NCBI GenBank assembly: GCA_045545475.1
Contig: JAZQAZ010000034.1
Span: 33,287-97,286 of the forward strand
Length of the DNA stretch: 64,000 bases
Direction of reading: 5' to 3'
Source: Clostridia bacterium
Lineage (GTDB): Bacteria; Bacillota; Clostridia; CAKSNL01; HGM11501
Part shown: piece by piece, positions 4,837 through 53,417 of the stretch
How positions within the stretch are numbered: position 1 is the stretch's first letter
How the letters are laid out: each line of letters begins with the position of its first letter
Translations under genes and position numbers: made by a program
The notes under the pieces: model-generated
Databases searched by the model: none
What the model saw: the letters and a program-made list of their open reading frames with translations, nothing else
What the model was told of the DNA's origin: nothing

Positions 4837-5214
4837 ATGTTAATGATGATGTTAATGTCCATGCCTCAGGGTATGGGTGACACGGCAACAACAGAGGCTG
4901 TTACACAGACAACGGAAGCTGCAACTCAGAGCGGCAGTTCATGGATAACTTTCCTTCCCATGATTATAGTTTTGGTGGCTATGTACTTTATCTTGATTCT
5001 TCCTCAGAAGAAGCAGGAAAAGAAGCAGCGTTCCATGATTGATGCCCTTGTTCCCGGTGATGAAATTGTTACCATCGGCGGTATTTACGGTAATGTTGTT
5101 TCCGTAAAGGATGATTGCATCGTAATCGAATCTTCTGCTGATAAGACAAAGATAAAAATCGCAAAGTCTTCCGTAAGCAGATGCTTAACCGTTCACGAAG
5201 AAGAAAAGAAATAA
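4837..5214 (+). CDS. yajC: Preprotein translocase subunit YajC
   Basis: Single TM helix followed by ILPQKKQEKKQRSMIDALVPGDEIVTIGGIYG, the YajC signature. Position between tgt and secDF. Confidence 0.9.
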   Translation: MLMMMLMSMPQGMGDTATTEAVTQTTEAATQSGSSWITFLPMIIVLVAMYFILILPQKKQEKKQRSMIDALVPGDEIVTIGGIYGNVVSVKDDCIVIESSADKTKIKIAKSSVSRCLTVHEEEKK

Positions 5215-8098: not shown

Positions 8099-8127
8099 GA
8101 CCTTACAATTTATAAGGAGAGATGACA

Positions 8128-11235: not shown

Positions 11236-12768
11236 TTAATTTCTGAAATCAAAAGAAAGTGTGTTTCCGTCGGACTTGATTTCTTTCTCTGAAACGGCAC
11301 AGCCACAGGTAAGCTTAACCTTGTATGAAACGCCCGAAAAGGAAAGTGTAAGTTCCTTTTCGCTTACACTTTTCACTTCATAGGAATGGGGGCATTCGAT
11401 GCCGATTGCATTTTTAAGTGTAAAGGGCATTTTGCCTTCAATTTTCATGCCGCTTTCCGTGAGAGTAATCGTAATGTCTGAAAATTCAGCTTTGGCAGAG
11501 CCGTTGCTCAAATCTGTAAATTTCATTTCGCTATTTTCGGGAAAGCTTCCGTCTTCAAATGTAATAAATCCGCCTGCTCTCACGCCTTTCCCGGTAAAGC
11601 GACAGCCGTCAATAAAGGGAAGTGCCTCGTAAGTTGCACAGTTTTCGGTGCATACGGAATCAAGGAAGGGGTCTTTAAGGCTGTCAGAATAAATGTGAAG
11701 ATCGCGGATACGTACGCCTTTTTCGTCGGAATAAATATTAACTCTGAAAAATTTGCTTGAATACCAGAGGGAATTTTTGCCCTCGTCGTCAAAAGCAGTG
11801 TGCGCCGTAATTGCCGAGGCGGGAGTGTCGGAAAAGGTTTTTTTATACCATCTGCCCGTTTCGCCTGCTGTTTCAACGGTGATTTTTCCCTCCCTCTGAA
11901 GCTTTTCAAAAAGCGGGAACTGATAATTAAGCCCATCTTTCATTTTGCTCCAGCCGAAGGAATTTTCCTGACCTGCCTGGGTATAGCCAAAGGAAAGACA
12001 GTCGCCGTTAAAGTTTTCCTTCATATACCAGTCAATCCATTTTGGGTTTCCGCCGCATCCGGGATATACAGGCTCTAAAGAGATAACGTCCTGGCGATTG
12101 TAGCTTTCTGCATTTTCATCAAGCTTGTAGTCATATTGATAAACAGGGTCCGATCCCAGCATTCTGAATAGGGGCACCGGCAGCATATTTTCCTTATTTA
12201 CAGCAGGAAGGAACACGTTTTTGCGGTTGGGATAATAGCCCTGACCGTAGTATCCGCCCCAGAGGGTGTATCCGTCGGTGCCGAACTGCTCTTTACAGTT
12301 CATAAAAGCATCAATGCCGTAGTGCTCGTTGGCATATACTGCCGTGTGGGAATCAAAAAGCCAGGAGCCGAAGGTTTTGGGATAGCAGCCAAAAACCTCG
12401 TGGAATTTTGAGAAAAGTACATCGATGAGCTTTTCGCGTTCTTCTTTTGTGTAGCCCACGGAAAAGCCTGTATCTGTGTGCCAGTCCCAGGAATAGCGTC
12501 CGCGCCATGTAAGATTTGCCGCTTCAACGTGGGGCTGGGTGATTTCATACCAAACGCCGATTTCAAACTGACCGGGGTCAAGCTCCTTTAAAAGATCCTG
12601 ATAAAAGGGCATAATCAGTGCATCATACTGAAGCAGAAAGGTTGCCTTTAAATTGTGCTTTTTAAGAAGAGAAATCTGTTCCTTTACGGGAGTTTCCAGA
12701 TCCATGGGAAGACGTGGTTCAACGGCTCTTATAAAGTTTACTATATTTACAATTTGTCTTTTTTTCAT
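11236..12768 (-). CDS. Hypothetical cytoplasmic carbohydrate-active-like protein (510 aa)
   Basis: The internal ATG at 12768 has RBS aaaaggag. The track's upstream 66 codons run through the divergent promoter region. Adjacent to galK. No confident family. Confidence 0.5.
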   Translation of the reverse strand: MKKRQIVNIVNFIRAVEPRLPMDLETPVKEQISLLKKHNLKATFLLQYDALIMPFYQDLLKELDPGQFEIGVWYEITQPHVEAANLTWRGRYSWDWHTDTGFSVGYTKEEREKLIDVLFSKFHEVFGCYPKTFGSWLFDSHTAVYANEHYGIDAFMNCKEQFGTDGYTLWGGYYGQGYYPNRKNVFLPAVNKENMLPVPLFRMLGSDPVYQYDYKLDENAESYNRQDVISLEPVYPGCGGNPKWIDWYMKENFNGDCLSFGYTQAGQENSFGWSKMKDGLNYQFPLFEKLQREGKITVETAGETGRWYKKTFSDTPASAITAHTAFDDEGKNSLWYSSKFFRVNIYSDEKGVRIRDLHIYSDSLKDPFLDSVCTENCATYEALPFIDGCRFTGKGVRAGGFITFEDGSFPENSEMKFTDLSNGSAKAEFSDITITLTESGMKIEGKMPFTLKNAIGIECPHSYEVKSVSEKELTLSFSGVSYKVKLTCGCAVSEKEIKSDGNTLSFDFRN

Positions 12769-12964
12769 AAAAAAGTCTCCTTTTCCATTTTTTGCGATTA
12801 TACTGCCGCTCGCATAAAAAGTCAACCGAAAACAGAGAATTGTGTTATTAAATTTAATTTTGTACGATTTTATAATTTTAAAATGTACTTGTATAAAATG
12901 GGAAATTGATGTATAATGAATAAAATATGCAGAGAATGCATTTTGCAAAAAAGGAGGGAGAACC

Positions 12965-13648
12965 ATGCTTCTTGAAGATGAAAAAATTGAAGAGCTTGGG
13001 ATTGAAGGCTTAAGGCTTATTCAATCGGACAAGCTTTTTAAGTACGGCACTGATGCGGTGCTTCTTTCAAAATTCGCCAAGGTGAAAAAAGGTGGCGAGG
13101 TTTTGGACTTTTGCACAGGAAGCGGAATAATTCCTCTCCTTATGTATGCCCGAAACAAGGAATGCTCCTTCGATGCCCTTGAAATAACGGAAAAAGCCTC
13201 GGATATGGCAAGGCGGAGTATGGAATTAAATAACCTTTCCGATAAAATAAAGGTAACAAAGGGCGATATCAAAAACGCCCGTGAAATTTATAAGGGCAGA
13301 CAGTTTGATTTAATAACCTGCAATCCCCCTTATATGGATGCAGGGGGAGGTTTAGTTAATCCCGACACGGATAAAGCCTGTGCAAGGCATGAAATTTTCT
13401 GCACGCTGGAGGATGTAATAAGGGAAGCATCCCACTTAGTGCGTCCCGGCGGATTTTTCTCAATGGTGCATCGTCCACGCCGCTTAACCGACATAATGTG
13501 CTTTATGAGAGAGTATAAGTTAGAGCCGAAACGCCTCACCTTCGTGGCAGACTCACCGGGTAAAGAGCCTGATATGATTTTGATTGAAGGTTTGAAATGC
13601 GGCGGAAAGTTCTTGAAAACAGACATCCTCTATTTAAAGGAGAATTGA
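12965..13648 (+). CDS. trmN6: SAM-dependent N6-adenine methyltransferase, tRNA1(Val) m6A37 type (YfiC/YabB-like)
   Basis: SAM motif VLDFCTGSG and catalytic NPPY (ITCNPPYMD). Sits directly upstream of rsmI, as yabB-yabC does in Bacillus. Confidence 0.75.
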   Translation: MLLEDEKIEELGIEGLRLIQSDKLFKYGTDAVLLSKFAKVKKGGEVLDFCTGSGIIPLLMYARNKECSFDALEITEKASDMARRSMELNNLSDKIKVTKGDIKNAREIYKGRQFDLITCNPPYMDAGGGLVNPDTDKACARHEIFCTLEDVIREASHLVRPGGFFSMVHRPRRLTDIMCFMREYKLEPKRLTFVADSPGKEPDMILIEGLKCGGKFLKTDILYLKEN

Positions 13649-21801: not shown

Positions 21802-24636
21802 TTATTTTACAAGATATGCACTTATTTCCTTTACGGTAATTGTACCTGCACCGGTATCTGTTTTGGGTGTAACGGATATTTTCTTAACACAGATTGGTTT
21901 TGTGAAAGTGTAAAGGGATGCACCTGTTGTTATGTCATAGTCGCTGACTCCAACGGACAGTTTATTTCCCTCCGAGTCATATATGTGAACTTCCATTTTC
22001 ATATATTCATCTGATAAGACTGCCGAAATGCTTACACCATCTATCACAAGACCTTCTTTGCCGGGAAACTCCACCATAAGAGTTTTGTCATGAAGAAAAT
22101 CAATGACTTCTGCACTGTCTGTTTCATCAAGAACTGCGGCGGCGGGAAGGTAGGAGGTGTCCTTTTCTATCTTATAGGCGGACCACCCTGTTTTGTTTAC
22201 GAAAGCCTTTTCTCCTGTGGAAGCGTTAAGTGTTGCTATAGTTTCGTCGTTATTTTTTGCTGTGAAGAGACCGCCTATGGCAATGCCACCAAATACGATA
22301 ATGGCAATAGAGGCGATGAGAACCATGAACTTGAAGTTTTTTCCGGAAACTATTTTATTGAAAACACGTTTAATCGGGGAATAATGCTCGCTTACTATTC
22401 CGGATATAACTTTTTTGAATTCCAAAGTGAGGTCTTTATATTCAGGGTGAAGTACCGATACATTATCAAGCTCTTTTTTCAGCTTTTTTATATTACGGTC
22501 ATTGGTTAAAAGTGTATTGTGACGAATGAAAAATTTACGCAGTGACTCATAAAATGATGTGAGGACGGTAAAGTCTGTTCTGATTCCGGGGATATCCCTT
22601 ACAATACGCCCGTTTTTGGTCATAGGTGGAATAAAGAGGTTTGATGATAAAAACCACTCTATGAATTCAAAGGGAGGAATTGATTGCTCCTTATCTATAA
22701 ATTCCAGAATGCTGTCAAAATCCACCTGAGCACGGGAATCCTTTGAACCGTAAATATAAAACAAAATTATGTAAACAATGCGTCTCGGAGAGTCCTTCTT
22801 TTCCTTTATACAACGGAGAAGTAGGGCTTTGAGCAAATCTTCTTTAGCTTTACCGTCTGATTGAGAGTCTGCAAAGTTTGCCCTTATGTTTTCAAAACCG
22901 AAGGCATCATAGTGAACAAATGACATGGCCATATCGTTGGTTAATGCCATTATTTCCTTTGCAGCCATTGCGATTTTGTGTTTGACAGTACATTCTTCGT
23001 TGATTGCTTCTCCGTCGGCAAGGGGGAATTTTTCAATTTTTGCAAGGTTGAGCTCCGAAATATCCAGCGTGGTCATATAGTTTTCAAGAGCATAACGATA
23101 AATTACGTTAAAGAGGGAGGCGTTATCAGGATGCTTGTCTTTAAGGGCAAGACACTTCTCCTCAAGATACTTAACTGCCTCAAAGCGGTCGCCCGAAGTA
23201 TCATAAAGTTGCATTGCTCTTTGCTGTATCATTGATATAATAAGCTCGCTGTCGGCAAGCTGAGGCATTTCGGAAAAAATACTGTCCGCAAATTCCATAA
23301 CCGAATGAACGGTTTTACGCTGTTCGATAAGATAGGTGAAATAGCGTGTTATTAAGCGGTTGCTTTTTGCCATTTTATGCTCTATTAATTTGTTATACAG
23401 CTCGCTGCTTCCTCTGGATGAGTCGATGTGCATGAAAAGAATTTCATTTTCCGAGGATTTAAGGCAGGAATCTATATCCAGCGTTATAAGGTCATAAAGT
23501 TCGTCTTTCTGCTTTTCTGGACAAAGGTCGTATGTTGAAACCAGTCTTTTGAGAATTTCCGGAGGGATCAGTATTTCCTTGCTTTTAATATAGCGTCTGT
23601 AAAGCTTTATAAATTCAGAATAAGAGGCGAGCAGACCTGGTTTGTCATCAGAACGCAAAAATTCTGCAAAAACTGTTGTAATTCTGCCGAGTCTTTGAGG
23701 AAGTGTTTCCTCGTTATCCTTTAAGTTATATATATAGGCAAGGTCGTTATAAAAACGCAGTGACAGAATTTTTTCTGTGGGAAAAGCACGTTCAGCTTCT
23801 CTGGCAAAAGCAAAAAAGTCTGAAAGTGAGGTGCCTGTGGCAAAGCTTGTTGATACAAAGGAAAGGTATTCCTCAGAAAGAGCTTCCTTTGTGTCAGGAA
23901 CCTGAGAACGGTTTTTCTTGCTGAAATTGAATATATAATCCTTTGAAGCGTCATAGGATTCGATTGAAAATCTTCCGCTGGGCGAGACTTTATCGTCGGG
24001 AATAAAGTAGATATTTATTTCGGGGCGAATCTCTGTTTCTCCGAAAAGAGTGCAAAAGCCGGTTTTGCTTCTCATAAAAAAGGGAAGGTATTCGTAGAGT
24101 CCGTACATTATGGCACATATTTTATCAATGTCTGTTTTTCTGGGAAGAGCAATGAAAATTTTTCTGTTTTGCTCAACAGATGCGAAAACAGCGGCGAGAA
24201 GTGCCATGTATTCTGTATGAGACATGTTAAGGGAGGCAAAAGCTTTTTTCAGGAAAGTGCTGCGTTCTTTTGTAAAAGGAAGTTCCTTTAGCGACGGCAG
24301 ATATGGGTTTTTTGCATCATCGGGTTCAGGGAGAGCCAAAATGGCAGCAGGGTCGGAAACAACGGCAGATACATCATCCTGAGGAATGATGTAATTATGG
24401 ATGCAGGAATAAGGTTCTGTAGCCGATTTCATTCCCGTGCCGATTAAAAGACCGCCACCCGATAAAGGAATGAAGCTTTTGTATCCGGGCGAGTCTTTGC
24501 CCTCTAGATAAAAGAGATCCAGCATGGAGTAAAAAGGACGGATTGCATTGTCGATATATTCTTCGGTTAACGTTGTGGATTTTGAAGAAGTTTCAAGTCC
24601 AATTCCCGTTTTTATGTAAATTTGCTGTTCTATCAT
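21802..24636 (-). CDS. Large orphan single-pass membrane protein (944 aa)
   Basis: Strong RBS aaaaaggagg. About 740 cytoplasmic residues, one TM helix (FKFMVLIASIAIIVFGGIAIGGLF), then a beta-rich exodomain of about 160 aa ending ..GAGTITVKEISAYLVK. No family recognised. Confidence 0.7.
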   Translation of the reverse strand: MIEQQIYIKTGIGLETSSKSTTLTEEYIDNAIRPFYSMLDLFYLEGKDSPGYKSFIPLSGGGLLIGTGMKSATEPYSCIHNYIIPQDDVSAVVSDPAAILALPEPDDAKNPYLPSLKELPFTKERSTFLKKAFASLNMSHTEYMALLAAVFASVEQNRKIFIALPRKTDIDKICAIMYGLYEYLPFFMRSKTGFCTLFGETEIRPEINIYFIPDDKVSPSGRFSIESYDASKDYIFNFSKKNRSQVPDTKEALSEEYLSFVSTSFATGTSLSDFFAFAREAERAFPTEKILSLRFYNDLAYIYNLKDNEETLPQRLGRITTVFAEFLRSDDKPGLLASYSEFIKLYRRYIKSKEILIPPEILKRLVSTYDLCPEKQKDELYDLITLDIDSCLKSSENEILFMHIDSSRGSSELYNKLIEHKMAKSNRLITRYFTYLIEQRKTVHSVMEFADSIFSEMPQLADSELIISMIQQRAMQLYDTSGDRFEAVKYLEEKCLALKDKHPDNASLFNVIYRYALENYMTTLDISELNLAKIEKFPLADGEAINEECTVKHKIAMAAKEIMALTNDMAMSFVHYDAFGFENIRANFADSQSDGKAKEDLLKALLLRCIKEKKDSPRRIVYIILFYIYGSKDSRAQVDFDSILEFIDKEQSIPPFEFIEWFLSSNLFIPPMTKNGRIVRDIPGIRTDFTVLTSFYESLRKFFIRHNTLLTNDRNIKKLKKELDNVSVLHPEYKDLTLEFKKVISGIVSEHYSPIKRVFNKIVSGKNFKFMVLIASIAIIVFGGIAIGGLFTAKNNDETIATLNASTGEKAFVNKTGWSAYKIEKDTSYLPAAAVLDETDSAEVIDFLHDKTLMVEFPGKEGLVIDGVSISAVLSDEYMKMEVHIYDSEGNKLSVGVSDYDITTGASLYTFTKPICVKKISVTPKTDTGAGTITVKEISAYLVK

Positions 24637-24755: not shown

Positions 24756-24831
24756 GCTGGTGTGGCTCAGTCGGTAGAGCAATTGATTCGTAATCAATAG
24801 ATCGTCGGTTCAAGTCCGATCACCAGCTCCA
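24756..24831 (+). tRNA. tRNA-Thr (anticodon CGT), CCA encoded
   Basis: Cloverleaf folded by hand: acceptor GCTGGTG/CACCAGC, D arm GCTC..GAGC, anticodon arm ATTGA-TTCGTAA-TCAAT, T arm GTCGG-TTCAAGT-CCGAT, discriminator T, CCA. Confidence 0.9.
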
Positions 24832-27830: not shown

Positions 27831-28337
27831 ATGGAGAGATATACTCTTGCGGTACTGGTAAGAAACCGTTTCGGTGTTCTTAACAGAGTAACCAGCATGT
27901 TCAGAAGAAGAAGGTTTAATATAAGTGCCCTTACGGTTAGTGAAACGGAATCTGCGGATTTTTCACGAATTACTGTGGTTTTCGACGGGGATGACGACAA
28001 CAAGGATCAGCTTATCAATCAGCTTTACAAGCTTCCTGATGTGTCCTCAATTCGTGAGCTTAACAAGTCGGAGTCCGTAAGCTGTGAGCTTATGCTTATA
28101 AAGATGGAAAATAATCCCGAAACAAGAGAGGATATATTAACGGCAGCTGATGCCTTCGGTGCAAAAACCGTTAACTATACAAAGGATGCCATTATGTTCC
28201 GTCTGACGGGAGACAGCGTGAAAATTGATGAATTCATAAACCTTATGCGTGATTTCAACATTCTTGAAATCTGCCGAACCGGAAGCGTTTCCCTTGAAAA
28301 GGGCGCAACCACCATAAGGAAGGTAACAAATTTATAA
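27831..28337 (+). CDS. ilvN: Acetolactate synthase small (regulatory) subunit
   Basis: ACT-domain N-terminus YTLAVLVRNRFGVLNRVTSMFRRRRFNISALTV. Confidence 0.9.
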   Translation: MERYTLAVLVRNRFGVLNRVTSMFRRRRFNISALTVSETESADFSRITVVFDGDDDNKDQLINQLYKLPDVSSIRELNKSESVSCELMLIKMENNPETREDILTAADAFGAKTVNYTKDAIMFRLTGDSVKIDEFINLMRDFNILEICRTGSVSLEKGATTIRKVTNL

Positions 28338-28340
28338 GAT

Positions 28341-28377
28341 AAAAAACCGTCGCATATGCGGTGTACTCATAAGGACA
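28341..28377 (+). repeat. Left copy of an inverted repeat (27-nt perfect core 28351-28377)
   Basis: aaaaaaccgtcgcatatgcggtgtactcataaggaca. The reverse complement recurs at 34643-34680. It starts 4 nt after the ilvN stop. Confidence 0.9.
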
Positions 28378-28384
28378 GTAATTT

Positions 28385-28424
28385 AAAAAGGCAGAAACAA
28401 TTAAATTTGTTTCTGCCTTTTTTT
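28385..28424 (+). terminator. Terminator after ilvN
   Basis: aaaaaggcagaaacaa-ttaaat-ttgtttctgccttttttt. Confidence 0.85.
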
Positions 28425-28440
28425 CTGCCTTTTTATTGTA

Positions 28441-28461
28441 GGGGCGATTCGCGAATCGCCC
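28441..28461. repeat. Perfect 20-nt GC-rich palindrome (REP-like)
   Basis: gggcgattcg|cgaatcgccc is self-complementary. It resembles a palindromic intergenic repeat type I recall from gut Firmicutes. Only one copy is present in this window. Confidence 0.5.
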
Positions 28462-28484
28462 ATTTTTAAGGTCTTAGGATTATC

Positions 28485-28515
28485 CTAAAATATTGGAAGA
28501 TGCCATACATCTTCC
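28485..28515 (-). terminator. Terminator of the reverse-strand five-gene operon
   Basis: ggaagatg-ccata-catcttcc hairpin. On the minus strand it is followed by aatatttt, about 27 nt after the EamA stop. Confidence 0.6.
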
Positions 28516-28541
28516 CTGCTTGTTACAATGCCGGACATAAT

Positions 28542-29417
28542 TTATTTGTTCGAAATATATATTCCCGTTGTAATGAGCAAAAATGATATAATATATTGCA
28601 TTTTAAATATATTCTCGCCTAAAATCAAAGCTCCAAATATACATGCAAACACCGGTTCTGCAAATTTTACGATAAATAGTTTTGAAAGCTCCCCGTTTTT
28701 CACCACGGAAAACCAGATGCAATAGCTGAAAATTGATGCAAAACATATGTAAACCATGACAAATGCAGATTTGCTAAAGGCAAAGTCCATCCCCCCGCCC
28801 AGGAGATTGCCTATAATCAATAAAACTATACCGCCAAACAATTGTGATATTCCTGTTGATGTAATCGGTTTTACTGTTTGAAATACCTTTTTACTAATTA
28901 CATTTGAAAAAACGGTGCAAAAAGACGCTGCAATAATTAGTGCATCGCCAATATTAAAACTTATTCCACCAAAATTTGCATTTATCGCAACAATACCCAC
29001 AAATCCTATAAGTACGCCAATCAGTTTTTTTGCAGTAAGCTTGTCTTCTTTAAAAAACATAGAGGAAAAGCAAACATAAAATAATACACCAACTTGTTTT
29101 AATATTGCAGTTTTAGAACTATCTGTGAGCTTCAATGCACTATATGTAAAGCTATAATGCAAGATTATTGCAAAAAGTCCTGATAAAAGAACAGGAACTA
29201 ATGCATTTTTTGCATCTTTAAAGGAAACCTTATCTGTAATAAAAGTATACAAGCATATAAGTGCACCGCATATAGTAAACCTAACTCCGGCGAAAAACAG
29301 AATATCTCCGGTTGTTACAATGTTGTATGCACCATAACCGAGCTTTACCATAGGAAAAAGCGTTCCCCAAAGGAGCATTACCAAAAGTGCATAAAGCATA
29401 GATTTATTTTTACTCAT
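28542..29417 (-). CDS. EamA/DMT family transporter (10 TM)
   Basis: Two EamA-like five-helix halves. Very AT-rich. 8-nt overlap with the upstream gene. Confidence 0.8.
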   Translation of the reverse strand: MSKNKSMLYALLVMLLWGTLFPMVKLGYGAYNIVTTGDILFFAGVRFTICGALICLYTFITDKVSFKDAKNALVPVLLSGLFAIILHYSFTYSALKLTDSSKTAILKQVGVLFYVCFSSMFFKEDKLTAKKLIGVLIGFVGIVAINANFGGISFNIGDALIIAASFCTVFSNVISKKVFQTVKPITSTGISQLFGGIVLLIIGNLLGGGMDFAFSKSAFVMVYICFASIFSYCIWFSVVKNGELSKLFIVKFAEPVFACIFGALILGENIFKMQYIISFLLITTGIYISNK

Positions 29418-30396
29418 TGCACACTCTCAAAACCACTTTGCCTATGTTTTCTCCTCTTTCTAAAATATCCAAAGCCTCGTTTGCCTCTTCCAAAGGCAGA
29501 ACCTTATATATGGATGGCTTCATTTCGCCTTTTTCAATTTTTGGCCATACTTTTTCTACAAGTTCAGCAAGAAGCAAAGCTTTTTCTTCGCTTGTGCGTT
29601 TTCTGAGCATGCTTCCAACAAGGTGAAGCCCTTTTGTAAGAAGAGGTCTTAACATAATATTTGTCTCTGTACCCGCAAGAGTTGAAATAACTACCCAATA
29701 TCCGCCTTCTGCCATATAAGGCAGGCTTTTACCAAGGGTTTCTCCGCACAGACAATCCATTGACATATTGACAGGAGTACCTTTTAATTCTTCTTGTTTT
29801 AAAAATTCCGAAACATCCTGCTTGGTGGAAATTATAACCACATCCGCACCAAGTGATACAATTTTTTCGGCAATTTCATCAGACAAAACGGAAGTAATAA
29901 CTCTTGCGCCAAAAGCTTTTGCCATAGGAATTGCAACAGATGCAAGGCCACTGGCGCCGGCAGGAATAAAAGCGGTTTGCCCCACTTTAAGATGCCCCTC
30001 CCAAAATAAATTCAAATATGAAGTTGCATATGCTTCAGGCAAGGTCGCCGCTTCTTCAAAGGATAAATTTTTTGGCATTGGCATAACCATTCCTTCCGGG
30101 GCACAAACATACTGTGCATAACCGCCTCCGCCTAAAAGGGCACAAACAGAATCGCCGATTTTAAATCTTCCCTTTTGTTTTGCGGTCTCTCCCATAGCGT
30201 CAACAGTCCCTGATACTTCAAGACCGGGCCACTCGGGCCAACCCTTTGGAGACGGATATGTCCCCTTCTTTTGCAAAAGGTCAGCACGATTTATGCCAAT
30301 CGCCTTGACTTTTATACGTATTTCATCGTCACCTGCATTTGGTATTTCCGCGTCTGTCAATAACAGCTTTTCTTCTTTAACAGTCATTGCTTTCAT
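29410..30396 (-). CDS. Quinone oxidoreductase-like MDR family NAD(P)H dehydrogenase
   Basis: IRIKVKAIGINRADLLQKKGTYP and the Rossmann segment IPAGASGLASVAIPMAKAFGA. The start MKAMTV.. has RBS aaagga. Confidence 0.8.
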   Translation of the reverse strand: MKAMTVKEEKLLLTDAEIPNAGDDEIRIKVKAIGINRADLLQKKGTYPSPKGWPEWPGLEVSGTVDAMGETAKQKGRFKIGDSVCALLGGGGYAQYVCAPEGMVMPMPKNLSFEEAATLPEAYATSYLNLFWEGHLKVGQTAFIPAGASGLASVAIPMAKAFGARVITSVLSDEIAEKIVSLGADVVIISTKQDVSEFLKQEELKGTPVNMSMDCLCGETLGKSLPYMAEGGYWVVISTLAGTETNIMLRPLLTKGLHLVGSMLRKRTSEEKALLLAELVEKVWPKIEKGEMKPSIYKVLPLEEANEALDILERGENIGKVVLRVCNE

Positions 30397-30412
30397 ATCA
30401 ATCAGTTCCTTT

Positions 30413-31468
30413 CTATAATCTGTAAACCACTTCGCCGTCTGCAATAGTCAAGATGCATCTGTATCCGTATTTGCTTTCAATGTGATTTTTGGCTGCGTCT
30501 GTCAGGTCAAAGCCTTCATCGGTATAGTCAAATACTGCAAGGTCAGCACGTCTGCCAACCCTTAAATATCCCCATTCGTTTTCTTTATGGAGAGCTTTTG
30601 CAGGGGCACAAGTTACTGCGCGGAAAATATTTTCTTCATTCATGCCAAGTGCTTTCGCTATGTTCATACACATAGTCATTCCGTATCTTCCGCCACGCTT
30701 ATAGGCGCTGAATTTAGTAATATCCGTGCTTATTGTATCCGGCAGATTTCCGTTCTTTATCGCACTTTCAAATACCGCAAAATCCGTATGGACATTTCCG
30801 GCAAAACCTGCATCAATAATAATTCCCTTTTCTTTTGCTTTGCTTAAGCACTCAAAATTATCTAAGGAAGCGTTATTTCCTCCGCCGTGGTATGCGTGAG
30901 TTATTATGTCGCCTTTGTTTAAGGTTTCTGAAATTTCAGACATACTGACAGGGGCGCCTGTCGTATGAACCATAACAATAAGGTCATTTCTTTTTGCATA
31001 ATCGCAAACTTCTTTCAGCGGATTAGTATCTCGCACATCCGAACTGTTAGTGTCAAAGTACACTTTTATTCCTGCCGCCTTTTCTCCGTAATATTCGAGT
31101 AATTTGATGGTGTTATCGAGTTGTGCTTTATTATCTTTAAAGTCAGCACGGAGGAAGACCTTATTTTTTATAAGGGAATTACTATACTGCTCTTTGCGGT
31201 CAGGCTCTGCTGAAGCATCAGCCGCCGCCGTAACACCAAAGGGAATACAGCTCATTTCTGCGTTTATTCCCCAGTAGCCAAACATATGCGTATGAATATC
31301 AACAAGCCCGGTCGAAACAACCTTTCCGTCCGCATCATATATGTAGTCGGCACTCTCTTTTATATCAGGCGCTATTGAGTGGATATGTCCGTTGTCTGTC
31401 AGAATGTCAGCGTATAAAAATTGTTCTCCGTCCCATACTTTCCCGTTTTTAATCAATATTTTTCCCAA
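30413..31468 (-). CDS. Amidohydrolase superfamily metallohydrolase
   Basis: GLVDIHTHMF metal-binding HxH and later VHTTG / HAYHGGG motifs. TTG start 10 nt after aggtgg. 20-nt overlap with the upstream gene. Confidence 0.72.
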   Translation of the reverse strand: MGKILIKNGKVWDGEQFLYADILTDNGHIHSIAPDIKESADYIYDADGKVVSTGLVDIHTHMFGYWGINAEMSCIPFGVTAAADASAEPDRKEQYSNSLIKNKVFLRADFKDNKAQLDNTIKLLEYYGEKAAGIKVYFDTNSSDVRDTNPLKEVCDYAKRNDLIVMVHTTGAPVSMSEISETLNKGDIITHAYHGGGNNASLDNFECLSKAKEKGIIIDAGFAGNVHTDFAVFESAIKNGNLPDTISTDITKFSAYKRGGRYGMTMCMNIAKALGMNEENIFRAVTCAPAKALHKENEWGYLRVGRRADLAVFDYTDEGFDLTDAAKNHIESKYGYRCILTIADGEVVYRL

Positions 31469-32462
31469 AGAATTTCACACCACCTATTATTTCACTTAAT
31501 ACCTCTTGCACAGCATATTCATGTTCGTATGTAAAAGGATTTTCTTTTGTGCCGTTGATATAAGCATAAAAATCTTTCATCATTTCATCGTATCTGCCTG
31601 TGTCAGTATTATCTTCAAACGGAATAAAAATCTTTCTGTCCTCATAGGTGGCATCTGCAATTGATGTATCAGAATATGTCATTGTAAGCGGACGCTCAAT
31701 CGGACAGATATTAACAGTTCCTTTGCTGCCTGACACCATAAACTGCCGTCTTCCAAATCCATTGACCTCAACAGAAGAAACAAAAACTCTTGCCAGTGCC
31801 TTTTCATATTCCAGAACAGCAAGATTATTATCCGCGAAATCAATGTCTTCTAACATTGTGTGCTTTAGGAATGCTGTTATATTATCGGGTTTTCCCAAGA
31901 TGTAAACTATTAAGTCAACCAAGTGAGAACCTAATATATACATAATTCCGCCACCGAAATTTGTGAGCCACCTTTTATAATCCTTTGGGTGATATGTACT
32001 CATTTCAGCATTGATAGAATAAATCTCACCGAGCTTGCCGTCTTTTATCAGTTCAAAGCATTTCTGTACTGCCGGATTATAACGAAACATATATGCTAAC
32101 TGTACAATAAGATTTTGTGCTTTTGCTGACTCTAACAAGCTTTTGTATTCTTCCAATGTGCCGCTTGCAGGCTTATCCATATGAATATGCTTTCCTGCAT
32201 CCACACATTTTTTTGCAGTTTCGGTTAAATCCCATACATCTGTTTCAATCAGCAAAGCATCGCATTTATGGATTAATTCATCCACCTGATATCTTGTTAA
32301 TCCTTCATATCCTTTTGCTTTACCACGTTTCTTTATCCATTCTTCGTTTTCTTCAGCAAAGCCAATGATTTCAAATAGTTCAGGAAATTTTCTGATTGCA
32401 AGCATTTTATCTTCGCCGTGATTATGTCCTATTCCAATTTGTCCGATTTTTATTTTTTTCAT
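31449..32462 (-). CDS. Gfo/Idh/MocA family oxidoreductase
   Basis: MKKIKIGQIGIGHNHG Rossmann N-terminus and the HMDKP motif. The ATG overlaps the upstream TGA (TGATG). Confidence 0.85.
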   Translation of the reverse strand: MKKIKIGQIGIGHNHGEDKMLAIRKFPELFEIIGFAEENEEWIKKRGKAKGYEGLTRYQVDELIHKCDALLIETDVWDLTETAKKCVDAGKHIHMDKPASGTLEEYKSLLESAKAQNLIVQLAYMFRYNPAVQKCFELIKDGKLGEIYSINAEMSTYHPKDYKRWLTNFGGGIMYILGSHLVDLIVYILGKPDNITAFLKHTMLEDIDFADNNLAVLEYEKALARVFVSSVEVNGFGRRQFMVSGSKGTVNICPIERPLTMTYSDTSIADATYEDRKIFIPFEDNTDTGRYDEMMKDFYAYINGTKENPFTYEHEYAVQEVLSEIIGGVKFFGKNID

Positions 32463-33463
32463 CACATATTCCTCCAATCAAATACTGTTCCCATCGGGAA
32501 GTTTTTGTCGTCGCAAAGTTCGTTGTAAATCTGCGGTGCATTTTCAGGCGATTCTATGCGTGATATAATAGGCTCTACCTGAATTCGCTTTGATGCTATC
32601 ATATCAAGGATTGCTCTGCAATCATCGTGATGTGTCCAGTGGTGCGGATAGGATTCAAACTTAGGACGCACAAAATTATGTGCACCGATAAGCTTAACAC
32701 CCGGGCGATGCACCTGCTGATAATAGTCGACTGCACTGTCCGAAACTCTTGTACAACCAAGAAGAGATATTCTTCCCATCCAGGACGCACACTCAAGTGC
32801 CTGATTCATAGCCTGTGCTATTCCCGTAACCTCAACACAGCCGTTTACCCCTTTACCCTTTGTAACTTCTTTTACTTTTTCCACAAAATCTTTGTCTGAC
32901 GGATCAAAAGCATAGTCGGCGCCAAGCTTTAATGCAAGCTCACGTCTTTGTGGATTAAGGTCTACTGCAATTACAGGATTTGCACCGGAAAGTCTTAAAA
33001 ACTGCGTTGCAAATATTCCAAGCAGGCCCTGTCCCATAACCATTGCGCTTTCGCCAAGCTCTATTTCCAGCTTCCTGACTCCGCCAAGCCCCATGGAAGC
33101 GATAATTACAAATGCCGCTTCAAGGGATGAAACATTATCATTTTCGACCTTTGTTATATCATCTTCGGTGCGGATATTATATTTAGAATGGCAGCCGTGA
33201 TAAACTAAAACTCTGTCGCCAACTGACACCTTTTTTACATCCTTGCCGATTTCTTCTACATATCCTACACCACAGTACCCCAGAGACATAGGGAATTTTT
33301 GCGAAGTATTGTTCATTCCTAAAATGCAGGCTCTTTCTGTACCGCCACTCACAACTGTATATTCCATTTTCGCAAGCACTTCATTTTCTTTTACTTTGCG
33401 GACTTCATTTTCTAAAAGCTCCGCCTTGTGAACATCTGTAAAAAATATCTGTTTATTTAACAT
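32462..33463 (-). CDS. Zinc-type alcohol/polyol dehydrogenase (MDR family)
   Basis: GYCGVGYVEEIGKDV..GDRV and the Rossmann segment VMGQGLLGIFATQFLRLSGA. RBS gaggtg. Confidence 0.85.
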   Translation of the reverse strand: MLNKQIFFTDVHKAELLENEVRKVKENEVLAKMEYTVVSGGTERACILGMNNTSQKFPMSLGYCGVGYVEEIGKDVKKVSVGDRVLVYHGCHSKYNIRTEDDITKVENDNVSSLEAAFVIIASMGLGGVRKLEIELGESAMVMGQGLLGIFATQFLRLSGANPVIAVDLNPQRRELALKLGADYAFDPSDKDFVEKVKEVTKGKGVNGCVEVTGIAQAMNQALECASWMGRISLLGCTRVSDSAVDYYQQVHRPGVKLIGAHNFVRPKFESYPHHWTHHDDCRAILDMIASKRIQVEPIISRIESPENAPQIYNELCDDKNFPMGTVFDWRNM

Positions 33464-33821
33464 ATTGCACCTCACTATATCTTTTTCATATTATCAATCA
33501 CAGCTTTAACTGTTTTTAAATCAAGCTGTTCCATTGTACTGCTTTGGGAAAATCTGCCGACACAGAATATTATCTGCCCCGTCATACATACAATTTTTGA
33601 TTTCTGCAATTGCGTCTTTTGCAGTTTTTTCTCGGATAGCTCCTGCAATAGCAGGTGCCTGTAGTTTTGATAACACTTTCATAAAATCACCTCTTGATGC
33701 CATTATACAAAAGAGTGAAATAAAACGAAATAGCAAATATGATATTTTTATCAAATTTGCTACAAAATTATTGACAAAATATTTTCTATGATTTACAATT
33801 ATTCCAAAAGGTGTGATATAT

Positions 33822-34580
33822 ATGAATTTAGAAATTTTATCAGATTTGATTATTACCAAAGTCTATTCTGCAACTACAATGTATACAGAAAAAAATGCAA
33901 AAACTGAAAGAAATAATCGTCCAAACTGGGCAATTGTTATCAAATACGAAGGGGAAACCCTGTATGTTTCCGGTGGAAAATCCTATCTCTCAGACATAAA
34001 CAATCTTGTTATTTTACCAAAGGGCTGTTCTTATGAATGGCGGTGTACACATTCTGGACACTTTTCAATTATTGAATTTGAAAGCGAACTTGTATGTAAT
34101 GACATTTTCAGTTTTTATGTGAAGAACAGCGAGAAATTTTTAAAGCTTTTCAAGGAGCTGGAATATCAAAGAACTCTCAGAAAGCCGATGTATGAGGCTG
34201 AAAGTATTCGTGACACATATTCGATTCTGCTGATGCTGATACAATCTGTACAAAAAAAGTATTTACCTACCGAAAAAATAAATAAAATCAGTCCTGCATT
34301 AGATTATATTGCTAAAAACTATAATATAAATATTAAAAACGACATTCTGGCAAATCTTTGCAATCTATCAACTGTTTATTTCAGAAAACTATTTACCGAA
34401 ATTATGGGCACTTCACCAATATCGTATGTGCATGAACTGCGCATAAAAAAAGCCAAGGAAATGCTGAAAAGCGATTACGGCAGCATAACTGATATAGCAC
34501 AATCCTTGGGATATTTAAATATTTACGATTTTTCAAGAACTTTTAAAAAGTATGTTGGTATTTCACCATCAAAATACTAA
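33822..34580 (+). CDS. AraC family transcriptional regulator, divergent from the five-gene operon
   Basis: C-terminal HTH ..LCNLSTVYFRKLFTEIMGTSPISYV..LRIKKAKEML. ATG 33822 (GTG 33813 is possible). Confidence 0.8.
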   Translation: MNLEILSDLIITKVYSATTMYTEKNAKTERNNRPNWAIVIKYEGETLYVSGGKSYLSDINNLVILPKGCSYEWRCTHSGHFSIIEFESELVCNDIFSFYVKNSEKFLKLFKELEYQRTLRKPMYEAESIRDTYSILLMLIQSVQKKYLPTEKINKISPALDYIAKNYNINIKNDILANLCNLSTVYFRKLFTEIMGTSPISYVHELRIKKAKEMLKSDYGSITDIAQSLGYLNIYDFSRTFKKYVGISPSKY

Positions 34581-34630
34581 AAAAGAGGCATAAATTATTG
34601 AAGTAGTCAATAATTTATGCCTCTTTTTTT
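34579..34630 (+). terminator. Terminator after the AraC gene at 33822
   Basis: aaaaaagaggcataaattattg-aagtag-tcaataatttatgcctcttttttt (16-bp stem). Confidence 0.85.
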
Positions 34631-34642
34631 CTTTAACCATTA

Positions 34643-34680
34643 TGTCCTTATGAGTACACCGCATATGCGGCGTTTTTTTT
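34643..34680 (-). repeat. Right copy of the inverted repeat (27-nt perfect core 34643-34669)
   Basis: tgtccttatgagtacaccgcatatgcggcgtttttttt. It directly abuts the stop of the reverse-strand AraC gene (34679-34681). Confidence 0.9.
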
Positions 34681-35551
34681 ACTTTATGCTTGCTATATAA
34701 GCCTTAGGGGAAAAGCCGGTAGCTTTTTTGAAACTGCGGGAAAAGTTATGGATACTCGAATAGCCGAAAAGGTCAGATATCTGGCTTACAGACAGTGTTT
34801 TCGTGCGGAGCAGCCTCTTTGCCTCGCTTACGCGTAAGCTGTGATAATATTCTATAGGGCTTTGTCCAGTATCGTCACGGAAAAGCTTGCATAGCTGACT
34901 CTTTCCGATGGAGAACTTATCGCACACGGCACTAAGGGTAACGGTGCTGTATACGTTGGATGCAAGAAAATTTTTTACAAGCTCAATAACGGAGCTGTCG
35001 GTGAGGGTGCGGTTTTCCTCTTGAGTTGGAATTCTCATGAAATAGGAGTTTTTCTCACGGTAGAGCTTTATTAAAAATTCCGTCAGATAGCAGGATAAAA
35101 GCTGTGTTGCACCGAAGGGAGCATTTGAGAAATCAGGACTGTCGTGCTTTTCCTGAAATCTTCTGAATTTTCCCAGCGTTTGCTGTGCTTCTTTTATGAA
35201 AAGGGAGAGAAGGGTTTTTTCCGTGCTGTCCAAAGTGAAAATTTTCTTTTTGAAATAGTCCATAGCTTCCCCTTCCACACTGAAGGAAATGACAAGCATA
35301 TTATTTGGCACCTTCTGGTCGGAAATATGGGCGTGCAAATCATTGGGCTCGTGGAAAATTACCTGCCCCTGGGAAAGATGGGTGCTTACTCCGTCGGTTA
35401 CGGCGATGATTTCTCCATTATCCACATACACCAGCTCCCAGAAGTCGTGGCTTTCGGGGGCGTGGGTGAAATCCTTGGTGAACTCAAAGTAATATATGCT
35501 GTAAAAGCCAAGAACGTTTATTTCATTTTTTATTTTCTGAAGTTCGTACAT
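34679..35551 (-). CDS. AraC family transcriptional regulator
   Basis: Cupin N-domain plus HTH (..SQLCKLFRDDTGQSPIEYY..LRVSEAKRLL). Divergent from the PIG-L / NagB-like pair. Confidence 0.85.
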   Translation of the reverse strand: MYELQKIKNEINVLGFYSIYYFEFTKDFTHAPESHDFWELVYVDNGEIIAVTDGVSTHLSQGQVIFHEPNDLHAHISDQKVPNNMLVISFSVEGEAMDYFKKKIFTLDSTEKTLLSLFIKEAQQTLGKFRRFQEKHDSPDFSNAPFGATQLLSCYLTEFLIKLYREKNSYFMRIPTQEENRTLTDSSVIELVKNFLASNVYSTVTLSAVCDKFSIGKSQLCKLFRDDTGQSPIEYYHSLRVSEAKRLLRTKTLSVSQISDLFGYSSIHNFSRSFKKATGFSPKAYIASIK

Positions 35552-50150: not shown

Positions 50151-50179
50151 TTGACAAAATAAGGATTATATGATATTAT
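50151..50179 (+). promoter_or_regulatory. Sigma-A-type promoter for rplJL
   Basis: ttgaca, 17-nt spacer, tattat. Confidence 0.5.
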
Positions 50180-50182
50180 AAT

Positions 50183-50312
50183 CAACGCAGTTATCCATAG
50201 ACAGCAGGCATAAAGGTAAGTCCTGCCGAGGAAGGTGCAAAAATCCATGAGATTTATGCGGCTTTGTCTATGTGACCAAGCCGCTTTTTTGCGGCTATAA
50301 ATTAAGAAGGAG
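50183..50312 (+). promoter_or_regulatory. Candidate ribosomal protein L10 autoregulatory leader
   Basis: A structured 5' UTR of about 130 nt between the promoter and the rplJ RBS, ending in hairpin agccgc-tttttt-gcggct. L10 leaders are established in Firmicutes. The match is by position and shape only. Confidence 0.4.
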
Positions 50313-52118: not shown

Positions 52119-53417
52119 ATGAAAATAATAGTTACAGAGCTTATGAAAAAGTTAATACTGTTTATCCTGCTGCTTGGTTTTTTGTGGTTAGCTCTGGTAG
52201 GTGCTTGCACCATCCCCAATGAAAAAATCAGAGAAAATATGGAAAAAAGTGCACTTTACTATAAAAATACCGAGGCATTTTCTTATAAAAACGGTGAGAA
52301 GCTTAATGCCGTTTCCGACAATTATGCCGACAGTATACTTCTTAATCTGAGCTATAATATGGGGCGTGGTACATGCTTAAGGGCGAGTCTTGATACTGCA
52401 TATTATGCTGGAGAAGAAGGGCTTAATCTGGCACTTTACCGTACGGTACATGAGGATGTATTGCCTGATACAGCTTATACAAGATACTGGCACGGAACTG
52501 CGATGGTTGTACGATTTATGCATCTTTTTACCGATATTTCCGGGATAAAAACGGCAGGAATAATAAAGGTTATAATTTTTCTTTTTATAAATCTTTTTGT
52601 TCTAATAAAAAGGAAAAATTATGTAACTGCACTTTCTCTTTCGTTTGCAGCAGTTTTTATCCATATATGGAATGTGGGGCTTTCTCTTGAATATCAGAGT
52701 AGTTTTGTTATAGGTTTTCTTATGTGCATTCTGTTTCTTCAGGCAGAGCGGAAAAAGGAAAAAGCCTTATCATATATAGCACTTGCAGGTGGCGTTTTGG
52801 TTGCGTTTTTTGACTTTCTTACAACAGAAACCGTTGCGATTTTACTTCCGCTTATTCTTGTAACATCCGCAAGGCTGGAAGAAGGAAGGCTTAACGATAT
52901 TGAAAAATACGGAAAAACTCTTATAAACTGCGTCATATCCTATGCATCAGGCTATGCTCTTACATTTATTTCAAAGTGGGTTCTGGTAGGAGTTTTTACC
53001 GGAATGAACAGATTTTCAGAGGTTTTTTCTAAATCGCAGGCACTTTTTGAGAAAAGCGGTGAGACGGCAAACAATATATTTATCCGCATGATAAATGCAG
53101 TCGCGGCAAATTTTACAGTACTTTTTGGAGGGATTTATCGTATAGATTATTTTCTGGTGTTTATATACTTTGTCGTTATTTCTGTGTTGATATTATCTCT
53201 TTTATATCTTTTTGGAAAGAAGCGTAAAATAAATGGCTTGTTTCTTCTTCCTCTCTTAGGTGCAATAGTAATTTTGAGATACATTGCTTTGCCGGGGCAT
53301 TCCTATATGCATAATTTCTTTACATACAGAGCACTTATCTCAACACTTACGGCAATTTTTGCGACAACCGGAATCAGCATAACTTCAAGGCGGGTGAAAA
53401 AGAATGGAAAAGCTTGA
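52119..53417 (+). CDS. Polytopic membrane protein (432 aa), possible GT-C-type glycosyltransferase
   Basis: About 10 or more TM helices with an extracytoplasmic loop after TM1. 14-nt overlap with the downstream GT2 gene. The function is inferred from context only. Confidence 0.5.
   Translation: MKIIVTELMKKLILFILLLGFLWLALVGACTIPNEKIRENMEKSALYYKNTEAFSYKNGEKLNAVSDNYADSILLNLSYNMGRGTCLRASLDTAYYAGEEGLNLALYRTVHEDVLPDTAYTRYWHGTAMVVRFMHLFTDISGIKTAGIIKVIIFLFINLFVLIKRKNYVTALSLSFAAVFIHIWNVGLSLEYQSSFVIGFLMCILFLQAERKKEKALSYIALAGGVLVAFFDFLTTETVAILLPLILVTSARLEEGRLNDIEKYGKTLINCVISYASGYALTFISKWVLVGVFTGMNRFSEVFSKSQALFEKSGETANNIFIRMINAVAANFTVLFGGIYRIDYFLVFIYFVVISVLILSLLYLFGKKRKINGLFLLPLLGAIVILRYIALPGHSYMHNFFTYRALISTLTAIFATTGISITSRRVKKNGKA

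Follow-up and report, generated by a model that had tools for sequence, protein, structure and literature searches.

The window, by which we mean the whole 64-kb stretch of Clostridia DNA that was analysed, carries a 6.3-kb accessory block between ilvN and a convergent AraC-family gene (Table 1). The cargo of the block is a sugar-type catabolic operon of six genes under AraC regulation. Pfam assigned all of the block's ORFs except one of 112 aa that had no match, and there was no recombinase among them. Searches for transposase or recombinase domains were likewise negative in the block and in window ORFs of at least 165 aa with a Pfam match, and no recombinase was found among the 52 window ORFs scanned, 10 of which had no Pfam match. 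The original prediction put the base composition of the block at 25–38% GC against 57% for one line of ilvB. That contrast was overstated: the dip is genuine and small (37.8% in the block, 41.8% in the remaining window), and places the block below all 6.3-kb sliding windows sampled in 500-nt steps (minimum 0.380).

Table 1. Features of the block and its flanks (positions within the window).
Feature	Position	Strand	Basis
ilvN, acetolactate synthase small subunit, left host gene	27831..28337	+	Pfam ALS_ss_C, ACT_AHAS_ss; stop 28335-28337
5' half of split host bidirectional terminator, A6 + CCGTCGCA	28341..28354		matches left half of L003 hairpin 5151-5180
TA, left copy of duplicated target dinucleotide	28355..28356		invariant in 21/21 aligned ends
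Left terminal inverted repeat, TGCGGTGTACTCATAAGGACAGTA	28357..28380	+	profile R1, 29.1 bits
Element-borne bidirectional terminator T1, AAAAAGGCAGAAACAA / TTGTTTCTGCCTTTTT + repeated T-rich arm	28385..28435		perfect 16-nt inverted repeat I7/I8; fold
Second hairpin, GGGCGATTCGCGAATCGCCC	28442..28461		terminator-like; kept in L001, L115
Conserved module of about 70 nt (69 nt): GTAACAAGCAGG, sequence-variable hairpin, TTAGGAnnTCCTAA	28467..28535	-	present in 10 other loci
EamA/DMT transporter, cargo	28542..29417	-	Pfam EamA
Zinc-type alcohol dehydrogenase, cargo (start codon approximate)	29410..30444	-	Pfam ADH_N, ADH_zinc_N
Amidohydrolase, cargo (start codon approximate)	30413..31468	-	Pfam Amidohydro_1, Amidohydro_3
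GFO/IDH/MocA oxidoreductase, cargo (start codon approximate)	31449..32477	-	Pfam
Second zinc-type dehydrogenase, cargo (start codon approximate)	32462..33475	-	Pfam
Divergent promoter region, operon / regulator	33476..33812		TTGACA-17-TACAAT at 33771-33799
AraC-family regulator of operon, cargo	33813..34580	+	Pfam HTH_18, HTH_AraC
Element-borne bidirectional terminator T2, 23-nt perfect arms	34579..34629		inverted repeat I2; terminator scan; fold
Right terminal inverted repeat, reverse complement TGCGGTGTACTCATAAGGACATAA	34640..34663	-	21/24 identical to left; R1 24.8 bits
TA, right copy of duplicated target dinucleotide	34664..34665		aligned ends
3' half of split host terminator, TGCGGCG + T8	34666..34680		aligns to L003 TGCGACGG + T7
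Host AraC-family gene, right flank, convergent with ilvN	34679..35551	-	Pfam; adjoins ilvN directly in L003

The block is bracketed by two copies of the 27-mer CGCATATGCGGTGTACTCATAAGGACA, at 28351-28377 on the forward strand and 34643-34669 on the reverse strand, and these are perfect inverted copies as originally predicted. The 27-mer has no third site in the window at up to three mismatches and did not occur in any of 100 shuffled sequences (chance expectation, zero). The near-perfect extension proposed at about 37 nt was borne out, the full inverted repeat comprising 42 nt at 90% identity (28336-28377 / 34643-34684). The surroundings of the two copies also agree with the earlier description of adenine runs, adjacent stop codons and inward terminators. 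An A6 run (28341-28346) precedes the left copy, starting 3 nt after the ilvN stop, and the right copy is flanked by T8 on the forward strand (A8 on the repeat strand; 34673-34680), which overlaps the reverse-strand AraC stop (34679-34681). Inward of each copy lies a strong hairpin with A and T runs (28385-28422 and 34579-34629). A weak third partial match of 16/18 nt at 29256-29275, within the EamA coding region, is probably due to chance (0.09 expected per window).

A relative, L003, was found to have the empty site that the original prediction had suggested looking for. Its ilvN and AraC genes are separated only by AAAAAACCGTCGCA-TA-TGCGACGGTTTTTTT, which forms an intact hairpin (5151-5180; -19.4 kcal/mol, z -6.7). 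The insertion point of the block is the loop of this bidirectional intrinsic terminator, common to the two convergent genes, and the repeat consists of two layers. Its outer layer (A/T run, CCGxCGCA and TA) is the host terminator cut in two. The inner layer of 24 nt, TGCGGTGTACTCATAAGGACAGTA, forms the terminal inverted repeats of an insertion that spans 28357-34663 (6,307 bp). Because the target is palindromic, its separated halves lengthen the apparent repeat from 24 nt to 37–42 nt and press it against both stop codons. The palindrome ccgcatatgcgg, previously taken for a component of the repeat, belongs together with the A/T runs and the nearness to both stops to the host terminator, outside the element's own repeat.

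Orthologous sites in other relatives are also occupied. In L002, which is 98.0% identical to L003 across ilvBN, the same loop holds another family member with other outermost repeat bases and other cargo, so that the site is filled in one and empty in the other of two close relatives. L001 shares with the window the left junction and, in the same orientation, the end of the block that bears EamA; the visible part of its element is 91–94% identical to the window, compared with 87% for ilvBN. The repeat profile found no copies at 26 ilvN loci other than these orthologous L001 and L002 sites. The closest EamA relatives, P0001 and P0007, lie on contigs too short to reveal a further insertion site of the window's own element, and there were no identical-protein records for ilvN or EamA. 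An exact 25-mer had no match in a one-genome-per-species collection without the source genome.

Two further readings of the repeats had been put forward, and the empty site bears on both. One holds that they let the 6.3-kb block undergo programmed inversion, as their perfect 27-nt match might suggest, and the 69-nt module is indeed reversed in L002. Among loci, this module, which matches no Rfam family, occurs either way round relative to the neighbouring gene or repeat. Neither the block nor the window ORFs of at least 165 aa with a Pfam match included an invertase or recombinase gene. The block itself is symmetric: both ends have a terminator and neither border a promoter, so a flip would change nothing obvious. 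L001, the only other genome seen with the block, has it in the same orientation, and the empty site and the insertion family account fully for the repeats. We therefore regard programmed inversion as extremely unlikely.

The other reading makes the repeat a REP-like element or a regulatory RNA element of 3' UTRs. Both copies are indeed found in 3' UTRs and face the same way with respect to the gene before them, and relatives of the repeat in metagenomes likewise follow stop codons. A profile scan, however, found exactly two copies in the 64 kb (runner-up score, 7 bits), and the ilvN loci scanned had only the two orthologous ones. The palindrome belongs to the host terminator, and no Rfam family reached its gathering score, the sub-threshold matches of the junction region being driven by terminator hairpins. 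Every copy outside the window marks the border of inserted DNA with a new terminator behind it. A role as a REP or 3'-UTR element is thus extremely unlikely, and of the three readings originally offered it is the non-autonomous island that was upheld, with its boundaries redrawn to the inner 24 nt: there is an empty site, no transposase, and the same repeats surround unrelated cargo.

This last point comes from a metagenome scan with the repeat core, which gave 37 matches beyond the window. Twelve were intergenic and shared a common layout of A run, stem arm, TA, repeat and terminator. The remaining 25 comprised 21 within long stop-free frames, which behave as chance matches should, and 4 in short frames without the layout. 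The same ends occur next to differing flanking genes at the 12 metagenome loci and at L116-L120, of which L117 and L118 are repeats of the L116 site. Including loci reached via shared cargo, eight elements are known with both ends (the window, L080, L082, L091, L107, L111, L116 and L119), spanning about 0.17–6.3 kb. Other members carry Fic, melibiase and deacetylase, an SHOCT membrane protein with a 23S-IVS protein, or unknown small ORFs, and one pair of 114-aa and 87-aa ORFs appears in four unrelated host contexts. Their scanned cargo proteins included no recombinase or transposase. Throughout the family the element has its own terminator inward of each repeat, and the repeat differs in its outermost 5 nt among lineages and sometimes between the ends of one element. 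These transposase-free cassettes of uncultured gut Clostridia apparently form an undescribed family; a literature search for the repeat strings returned nothing. A scan of viral contigs with a 16-nt core gave 29 single matches, which we regard as chance since their flanks were unrelated.

The window holds a single family element and no inner copies of the repeat, and a composite of two MITEs around the operon was rejected for the latter reason. The repeats are not a general vehicle for this operon either: the same operon, with homology spanning exactly 28539-34583, is present without them at at least five other loci in related Clostridia, and can thus also move by other routes.

Next to the repeat, TA is present at all 21 aligned ends. 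The two junctions of L111, and likewise those of L082, have nothing but TA in common, and a 6-bp duplication (CATAYG) made by a tyrosine recombinase, as suggested by L091, was dropped on this account. The window and L091 junctions share 10 and 6 nt respectively, so these two alone do not settle the duplication length; the extra shared bases are consistent with a palindromic CA-TA-YG target preference. In six of the eight elements with both ends, joining the two flanks through TA regenerated a terminator hairpin that has TA in its loop (z -4.6 to -6.7). No hairpin was regenerated at L080 and L119. Both of these contain palindromes in which TA links a partial repeat to a full one.

With its observed repeats, empty site, family, TA junctions, terminator-loop targeting and lack of a transposase, the block at 28357-34663 very probably arose by a single insertion, flanked by a duplicated TA, of a cargo transposon that is non-autonomous, belongs to the mobile-insertion-cassette type and is moved in trans. 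This genome gave no direct sign of current activity. Movement would be catalysed by an enzyme encoded elsewhere. The bias towards terminator loops may mean that this enzyme recognises the hairpin loop; alternatively, selection may keep only those insertions that fall in terminators. Because a strong bidirectional terminator lies just inside each repeat, ilvBN and the AraC gene would retain termination some 45–50 nt further on, and the cargo would be protected against read-through.

If the element is mobile, its likeliest mover is a TA-duplicating DDE transposase of the IS630/Tc1/mariner type, an assignment to which we give roughly even chances. The repeats match Mos1 mariner ITRs (TA|YCAGGTGTACAAGTA...; PMC2642840) at 12–15 of 24 positions in the same register after the TA, with shuffle p-values of 1e-2 to 1e-4 for what was a post hoc comparison. 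No transposase or autonomous copy was found beside the 21 aligned ends or beside 3 extra ends that had been picked up by profile or by eye, and no DD(E/D) transposase gene with paired helix-turn-helix domains was seen in the DNA examined. A cognate autonomous element with matching repeats was not found in the window or in plasmid and phage collections, in which block and repeat-joint queries had no match except one of 21 nt (E = 5). The variable outermost 5 nt would be unusual for a DDE transposon and count against this assignment.

Such variable bases would be less surprising beside a crossover site than where a DDE enzyme cleaves, and we also considered site-specific recombination, which we judge unlikely. 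On this view the cassette would form a circle in which the right and left repeats meet at TA as a palindromic attP. The acting enzyme, encoded elsewhere by the host or an integrative element, would be a tyrosine recombinase or a serine recombinase with its crossover at TA. Palindromic terminator hairpins would provide the attB, an arrangement that would resemble integron cassettes or Acinetobacter dif modules. In favour of this view, serine-recombinase sites are laid out in the same way, with a constant TA at the centre and symmetric arms; the targets are alike in structure (a hairpin) and little in sequence; no enzyme gene was found among the scanned proteins of any member; and L080 and L119 have the partial repeat-TA-full repeat palindromes. 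Against this, no recombinase was found. The target arms are fully variable, and of the known serine and tyrosine recombinases only integron integrases, which act on folded single strands, accept such variation. Moreover, TA-flanked inverted-repeat elements are usually mobilised by DDE enzymes.

The comparison with the dif consensus, meant as a lead only, also speaks against site-specific recombination. The family lacks the dif architecture of an 11-bp XerC arm, a 6-bp centre and a conserved 11-bp XerD arm: the repeat varies most at the positions beside the centre, an unconserved A run lies beyond the 19-nt core, and the host-side arms are unrelated terminator stems. A dif-like reading of the sequence (TGTACTCATAA-GGACAK-TAAT...) was rejected, its putative XerD arm being unconserved across the family. 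Acinetobacter dif modules nevertheless provide a precedent for recombinase-free cargo between inversely oriented, conserved half-sites that is shuffled among contexts (PMC13141974, PMC6449649, PMC10132070). They differ from the cassettes in being plasmid-borne with 28-bp XerC/XerD sites, whereas the cassettes are chromosomal, use terminator hairpins and have no conserved dif-like arm.

The preferred reading, a cargo transposon moved in trans, has closer parallels. Like mobile insertion cassettes and cargo MITEs, the elements combine terminal inverted repeats, a target duplication and passenger genes without a role in transposition with the lack of a transposase and presumed mobilisation in trans. 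For mobile insertion cassettes, of which MIC231 of Bacillus cereus is an example, and for MITEs, a parent IS with matching repeats has been identified, whereas none was found here. This family also differs in lying in terminator loops, in carrying a terminator of its own within each end, often with a promoter as well, and in cargo of up to a six-gene operon (MIC and MITE elements are discussed in PMC5444012, PMC4337579 and PMC10969869).

The TA at both junctions and repeats of about 24–28 bp are shared with IS630/Tc1/mariner elements and their MITEs, unlike which the family shows no DD(E/D) transposase and has variable outermost bases. The Correia elements of Neisseria are MITEs of this type for which, to our knowledge, no transposase has been described, as is the case for the cassettes. 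MITEs of the IS630 type are about 100 bp long, whereas the elements here are kilobases long and bear cargo; a bacterial MITE of this superfamily is RUP of S. pneumoniae, associated with IS630-Spn1 (PMC3049150).

In their choice of target the cassettes resemble two other groups. The IS3-family elements IS1397 and ISKpn1 likewise have the loop of an extragenic palindromic hairpin as the centre of insertion, in their case that of REP palindromes; they are autonomous IS with 3–4 bp duplications and target REPs rather than terminators. Class C bacterial group II introns also use intrinsic terminators as insertion sites; in contrast to them, the family is marked by inverted repeats and a duplicated TA, and shows no intron RNA domains, reverse transcriptase or Rfam match.

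A bolder suggestion, which we offer tentatively and hold to be improbable, is that the cassettes, with terminators and often a promoter of their own, belong to an unrecognised system of gut Clostridia. Its trans-acting enzyme would read the hairpin loop structure and central TA rather than the sequence of the arms, terminators would serve as generic safe-harbour attachment sites, and the orphan Gut-1 RNA motif would correspond to an array of subterminal hairpins in one branch of the family. If true, the link to Gut-1 would mean reclassifying this motif as mobile DNA.

Altogether, a puzzling long inverted repeat is explained by a transposon splitting a palindromic terminator, and a family of mobile cassettes is revealed in uncultured animal-gut Clostridia. 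These cassettes shift whole operons, Fic proteins and small unknown genes while carrying no transposase, and would restore termination to the genes they part. The enzyme, if found, would reveal how terminator loops come to be selected as neutral sites for insertion and could serve as a safe-harbour insertion tool. Such insertions would account for some of the accessory operons between conserved core genes in these genomes.

The block was inserted into the loop of a transcription terminator; inverted repeats bound it, TA flanks it, and it has no enzyme of its own. We compared it with relatives retrieved via ilvN, all of them uncultured animal-gut Clostridia. In one of these, L003, the same AraC gene lies directly after ilvN, and the spacer between them is TAAGAT-AAAAAACCGTCGCATATGCGACGGTTTTTTT and nothing more; this bidirectional terminator is a perfect palindrome (-19.4 kcal/mol, z -6.7). 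The window has the same hairpin, cut at its centre, and the two halves next to the element are host DNA; the repeat therefore appears to extend into the A/T runs and to touch both stop codons.

The 27-nt inverted repeat from which the block was recognized is present as one copy per strand, with no further copy in the window at up to 3 mismatches and none in any shuffle, and reaches 42 nt at 90% identity. The original prediction had correctly described the A/T runs beside the repeats, how near the repeats lie to both stop codons, and the terminator hairpins on the inward side. The low GC content is a real dip, since no sliding window of 6.3 kb, taken every 500 nt, had a value as low, but its contrast had been overstated (37.8% in the block versus 41.8% in the rest of the window). 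A profile built from aligned repeat ends finds just two copies in the 64 kb, the next-best score being 7 bits. At 29256-29275, in the EamA gene, the junction sequence has a third, partial match (TATAAGTGCACCGCATAT, 16/18); it is coding DNA, would span the host/element boundary, and is probably due to chance, since 0.09 such matches are expected per window.

The ilvN-AraC site has been struck at least twice. One relative, L001, carries the left junction of the window together with the EamA end, and the visible part of its element is 91-94% identical to ours versus 87% for ilvBN. A second, L002, has at that position a left end that is related but distinct: its outermost bases are TGAAT where the window has TGCGG, its 19-nt core (the inner, conserved part of the 24-nt repeat) differs at two places, and its cargo is another. 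The ilvBN tree is (window,(L001,(L002,L003))), and with 98.0% ilvBN identity between L002 and the empty L003, occupied and empty alleles coexist at near-species level. The interval is variable even where the element is absent, as seen in three further relatives (L004 to L006).

We aligned 21 element ends, anchored on the core, whose mean conservation is 86%. TA, located 5 nt outside TGTAC, is invariant, and the 5 nt between TA and the core depend on lineage. Our first reading was a 6-bp duplication, based on CATACG on both sides of the element in L091, and this was ruled out by two other loci: the junctions of L111 (GG-TA-AT and CC-TA-AC) have only TA in common, and so do those of L082 (CA-TA-TG and CC-TA-TG). 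The target duplication is therefore TA, and the longer stretches shared by both junctions in the window and L091 are compatible with a preference for palindromic CA-TA-YG targets. For six elements (window/L003, L091, L111, L116, L107 and L082), a strong terminator hairpin whose loop holds TA forms again once left flank, TA and right flank are joined (z -4.6 to -6.7). No such hairpin is rebuilt for L080 and L119, whose flanks hold partial copies of the inverted repeat. In these two loci (L080 1678-1722, L119 150-190) the partial repeat, TA and full repeat form palindromes, for example GACAGTACACCTCA-TA-TGAGGTGTACTGTC followed by TTTT, which may represent nested insertions, leftovers of lost elements, or sites similar to the joint that a circular form would have.

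The element belongs to a family present at many loci, with recent presence/absence variation. In a single metagenome scan, the degenerate core TGTACTCWWAAGGACAKWA matched 37 loci: 21 matches fell inside long stop-free frames, as expected of chance, and four lay in short frames and lacked the layout of the other 12, which were intergenic and shared one arrangement (A run, 5-8 nt stem arm, TA, 24-nt repeat, A run, terminator hairpin). Second ends were located by relaxed matching, the sequence profile and eye, and additional members were reached through homologues of one cargo protein. Both ends are known for eight elements (window, L080, L082, L091, L107, L111, L116, L119); the smallest is about 0.17 kb long, its repeats 135 nt apart, and the largest 6.3 kb. 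Typical members keep to one fixed order: repeat, terminator, inward promoter, cargo, optional conserved module, terminator, repeat. Cargo varies widely: a Fic protein, a melibiase with a polysaccharide deacetylase, a SHOCT membrane protein with a 23S-IVS four-helix protein, a 225-aa protein of unknown function, and a set without Pfam families, found in four unrelated host contexts. This set comprises a 114-aa protein, a ~29-aa ORF with a hydrophobic stretch (annotated as a gene in L119 only) and an 85-87-aa protein. Most of the 248 homologues of the 114-aa protein are on contigs shorter than 1.5 kb, which suggests a multi-copy element that breaks assemblies.

Two modules recur inside family members. 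The first, of ~70 nt, lies between cargo and terminal terminator in many of them and consists of GTAACAAGCAGG, a hairpin of variable sequence with conserved pairing, and TTAGG-N(1-4)-CCTAA; in the window, L001 and L115 it runs opposite to the nearest repeat, and it has no Rfam match. A diverged copy follows EamA in three loci without the repeats (L074-L076). The second, a right-end module of ~200 nt in three members, combines AGTGATATT direct repeats with an array of short GAAG/UUCG-type hairpins and ATAAAACT spacers, terminating in a diverged repeat plus TA. Two matches of the L111 copy to the orphan Rfam motif Gut-1 (RF01706) scored 40.3 and 35.3 bits, below the gathering score of 50, and Gut-1 may be a subterminal array of this cassette family.

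Features of the window and of other loci (L numbers; relatives and metagenome contigs)
Feature	Location	Remark
27-nt inverted repeat	window 28351-28377, 34643-34669
Host hairpin halves	window 28341-28354, 34666-34680	left, right
ORFs without Pfam family	window 21802-24636, 8122-9951, 11236-12966, 52119-53417	944, 609, 576, 432 aa, in that order
tRNA gene	window 24756-24828	Rfam, gathering score
Ribosomal protein L10 leader	window 50177-50298	Rfam, gathering score
Cargo operon	window 28539-34583	relatives L060-L066, L070, L071, L073, L074
ilvN-AraC interval	L004 10513-10898	other terminator, reverse-strand ORF of about 100 aa
ilvN-AraC interval	L005 3955-11298; L006 10508-17866	about 7.3 kb of other genes, including a 1757-aa ORF
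~70-nt module	window 28467-28535; L001; L002 11494-11561; L082; L089; L091 160-240; L107 5195-5255; L111; L115; L116
~200-nt right-end module	L111 1466-1662; L082 about 12524-12740; L002 11990-12095	L082 on reverse strand
114/87-aa cargo set	L107 4488-5207; L082 12860-13567; L116 6001-6725; L119 306-1032

The block encodes an EamA transporter, two zinc-type dehydrogenases, an amidohydrolase, a GFO/IDH/MocA oxidoreductase and a divergently transcribed AraC regulator, and no transposase or recombinase. Neither enzyme was found in the rest of the window (52 ORFs scanned in all, 10 without a Pfam hit), nor a recombinase among the scanned cargo proteins of the family. The other 42 ORFs are ordinary Clostridia genes, sporulation markers included; four large ORFs have no Pfam family at E <= 1e-5. 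At gathering score, Rfam matches nothing in the window except a tRNA gene and a ribosomal protein L10 leader.

In its mode of action the element is like a mobile insertion cassette or cargo-bearing MITE, and has all the defining features of these except an identified parent IS. Correia elements also have TA at their ends, and IS1397 likewise targets the loop of a palindrome. TA is shared, too, with IS630-derived MITEs (RUP, PMC3049150). The repeat strings had no match in the literature searched, and plasmid and phage records contained no match to the element. We consider it likely that the element is an inverted-repeat insertion mobilised in trans. The TA duplication and 24-nt repeats make the IS630/Tc1/mariner superfamily the first candidate, and, given mobilisation in trans, we put an enzyme of IS630/mariner type at roughly even chances. 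A post-hoc comparison with the Mos1 ITRs (PMC2642840), useful as a lead, shows that 12-15 of 24 positions of the family repeats agree with them in the same register, GGTGTAC at positions 4-10 among these. A site-specific recombinase that would act on a palindromic repeat-TA-repeat joint and on hairpin targets is the main rival, kept in play by the variable outermost repeat bases and by a target similarity that is purely structural. The dif modules (PMC13141974) resemble the element in being recombinase-less with inverted conserved half-sites, but the element has no dif-like arms.

Judging from the anatomy, the terminators just inside each repeat would insulate the cargo and restore termination of ilvBN and the AraC gene. 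In related genomes, operon homologues with 85-90% EamA identity occupy at least five other chromosomal loci, next to rpsI, gltX, a phage integrase and others, and none of these copies has the element repeats. In L073 the operon adjoins a phage-type integrase, and in L063 a CD-NTase/Cap15 (CBASS-like) pair and a restriction-modification system. The middle genes are modular and exchanged between versions (type I dehydroquinase, GDSL lipase, short-chain dehydrogenases, amidohydrolase). Because the operon occurs elsewhere without the repeats, and its homology to the window begins exactly at one stop and ends exactly at the other, the repeat-plus-terminator frame and the cargo have separate histories. 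The AraC-to-EamA operon is a modular accessory unit that also moves by itself.
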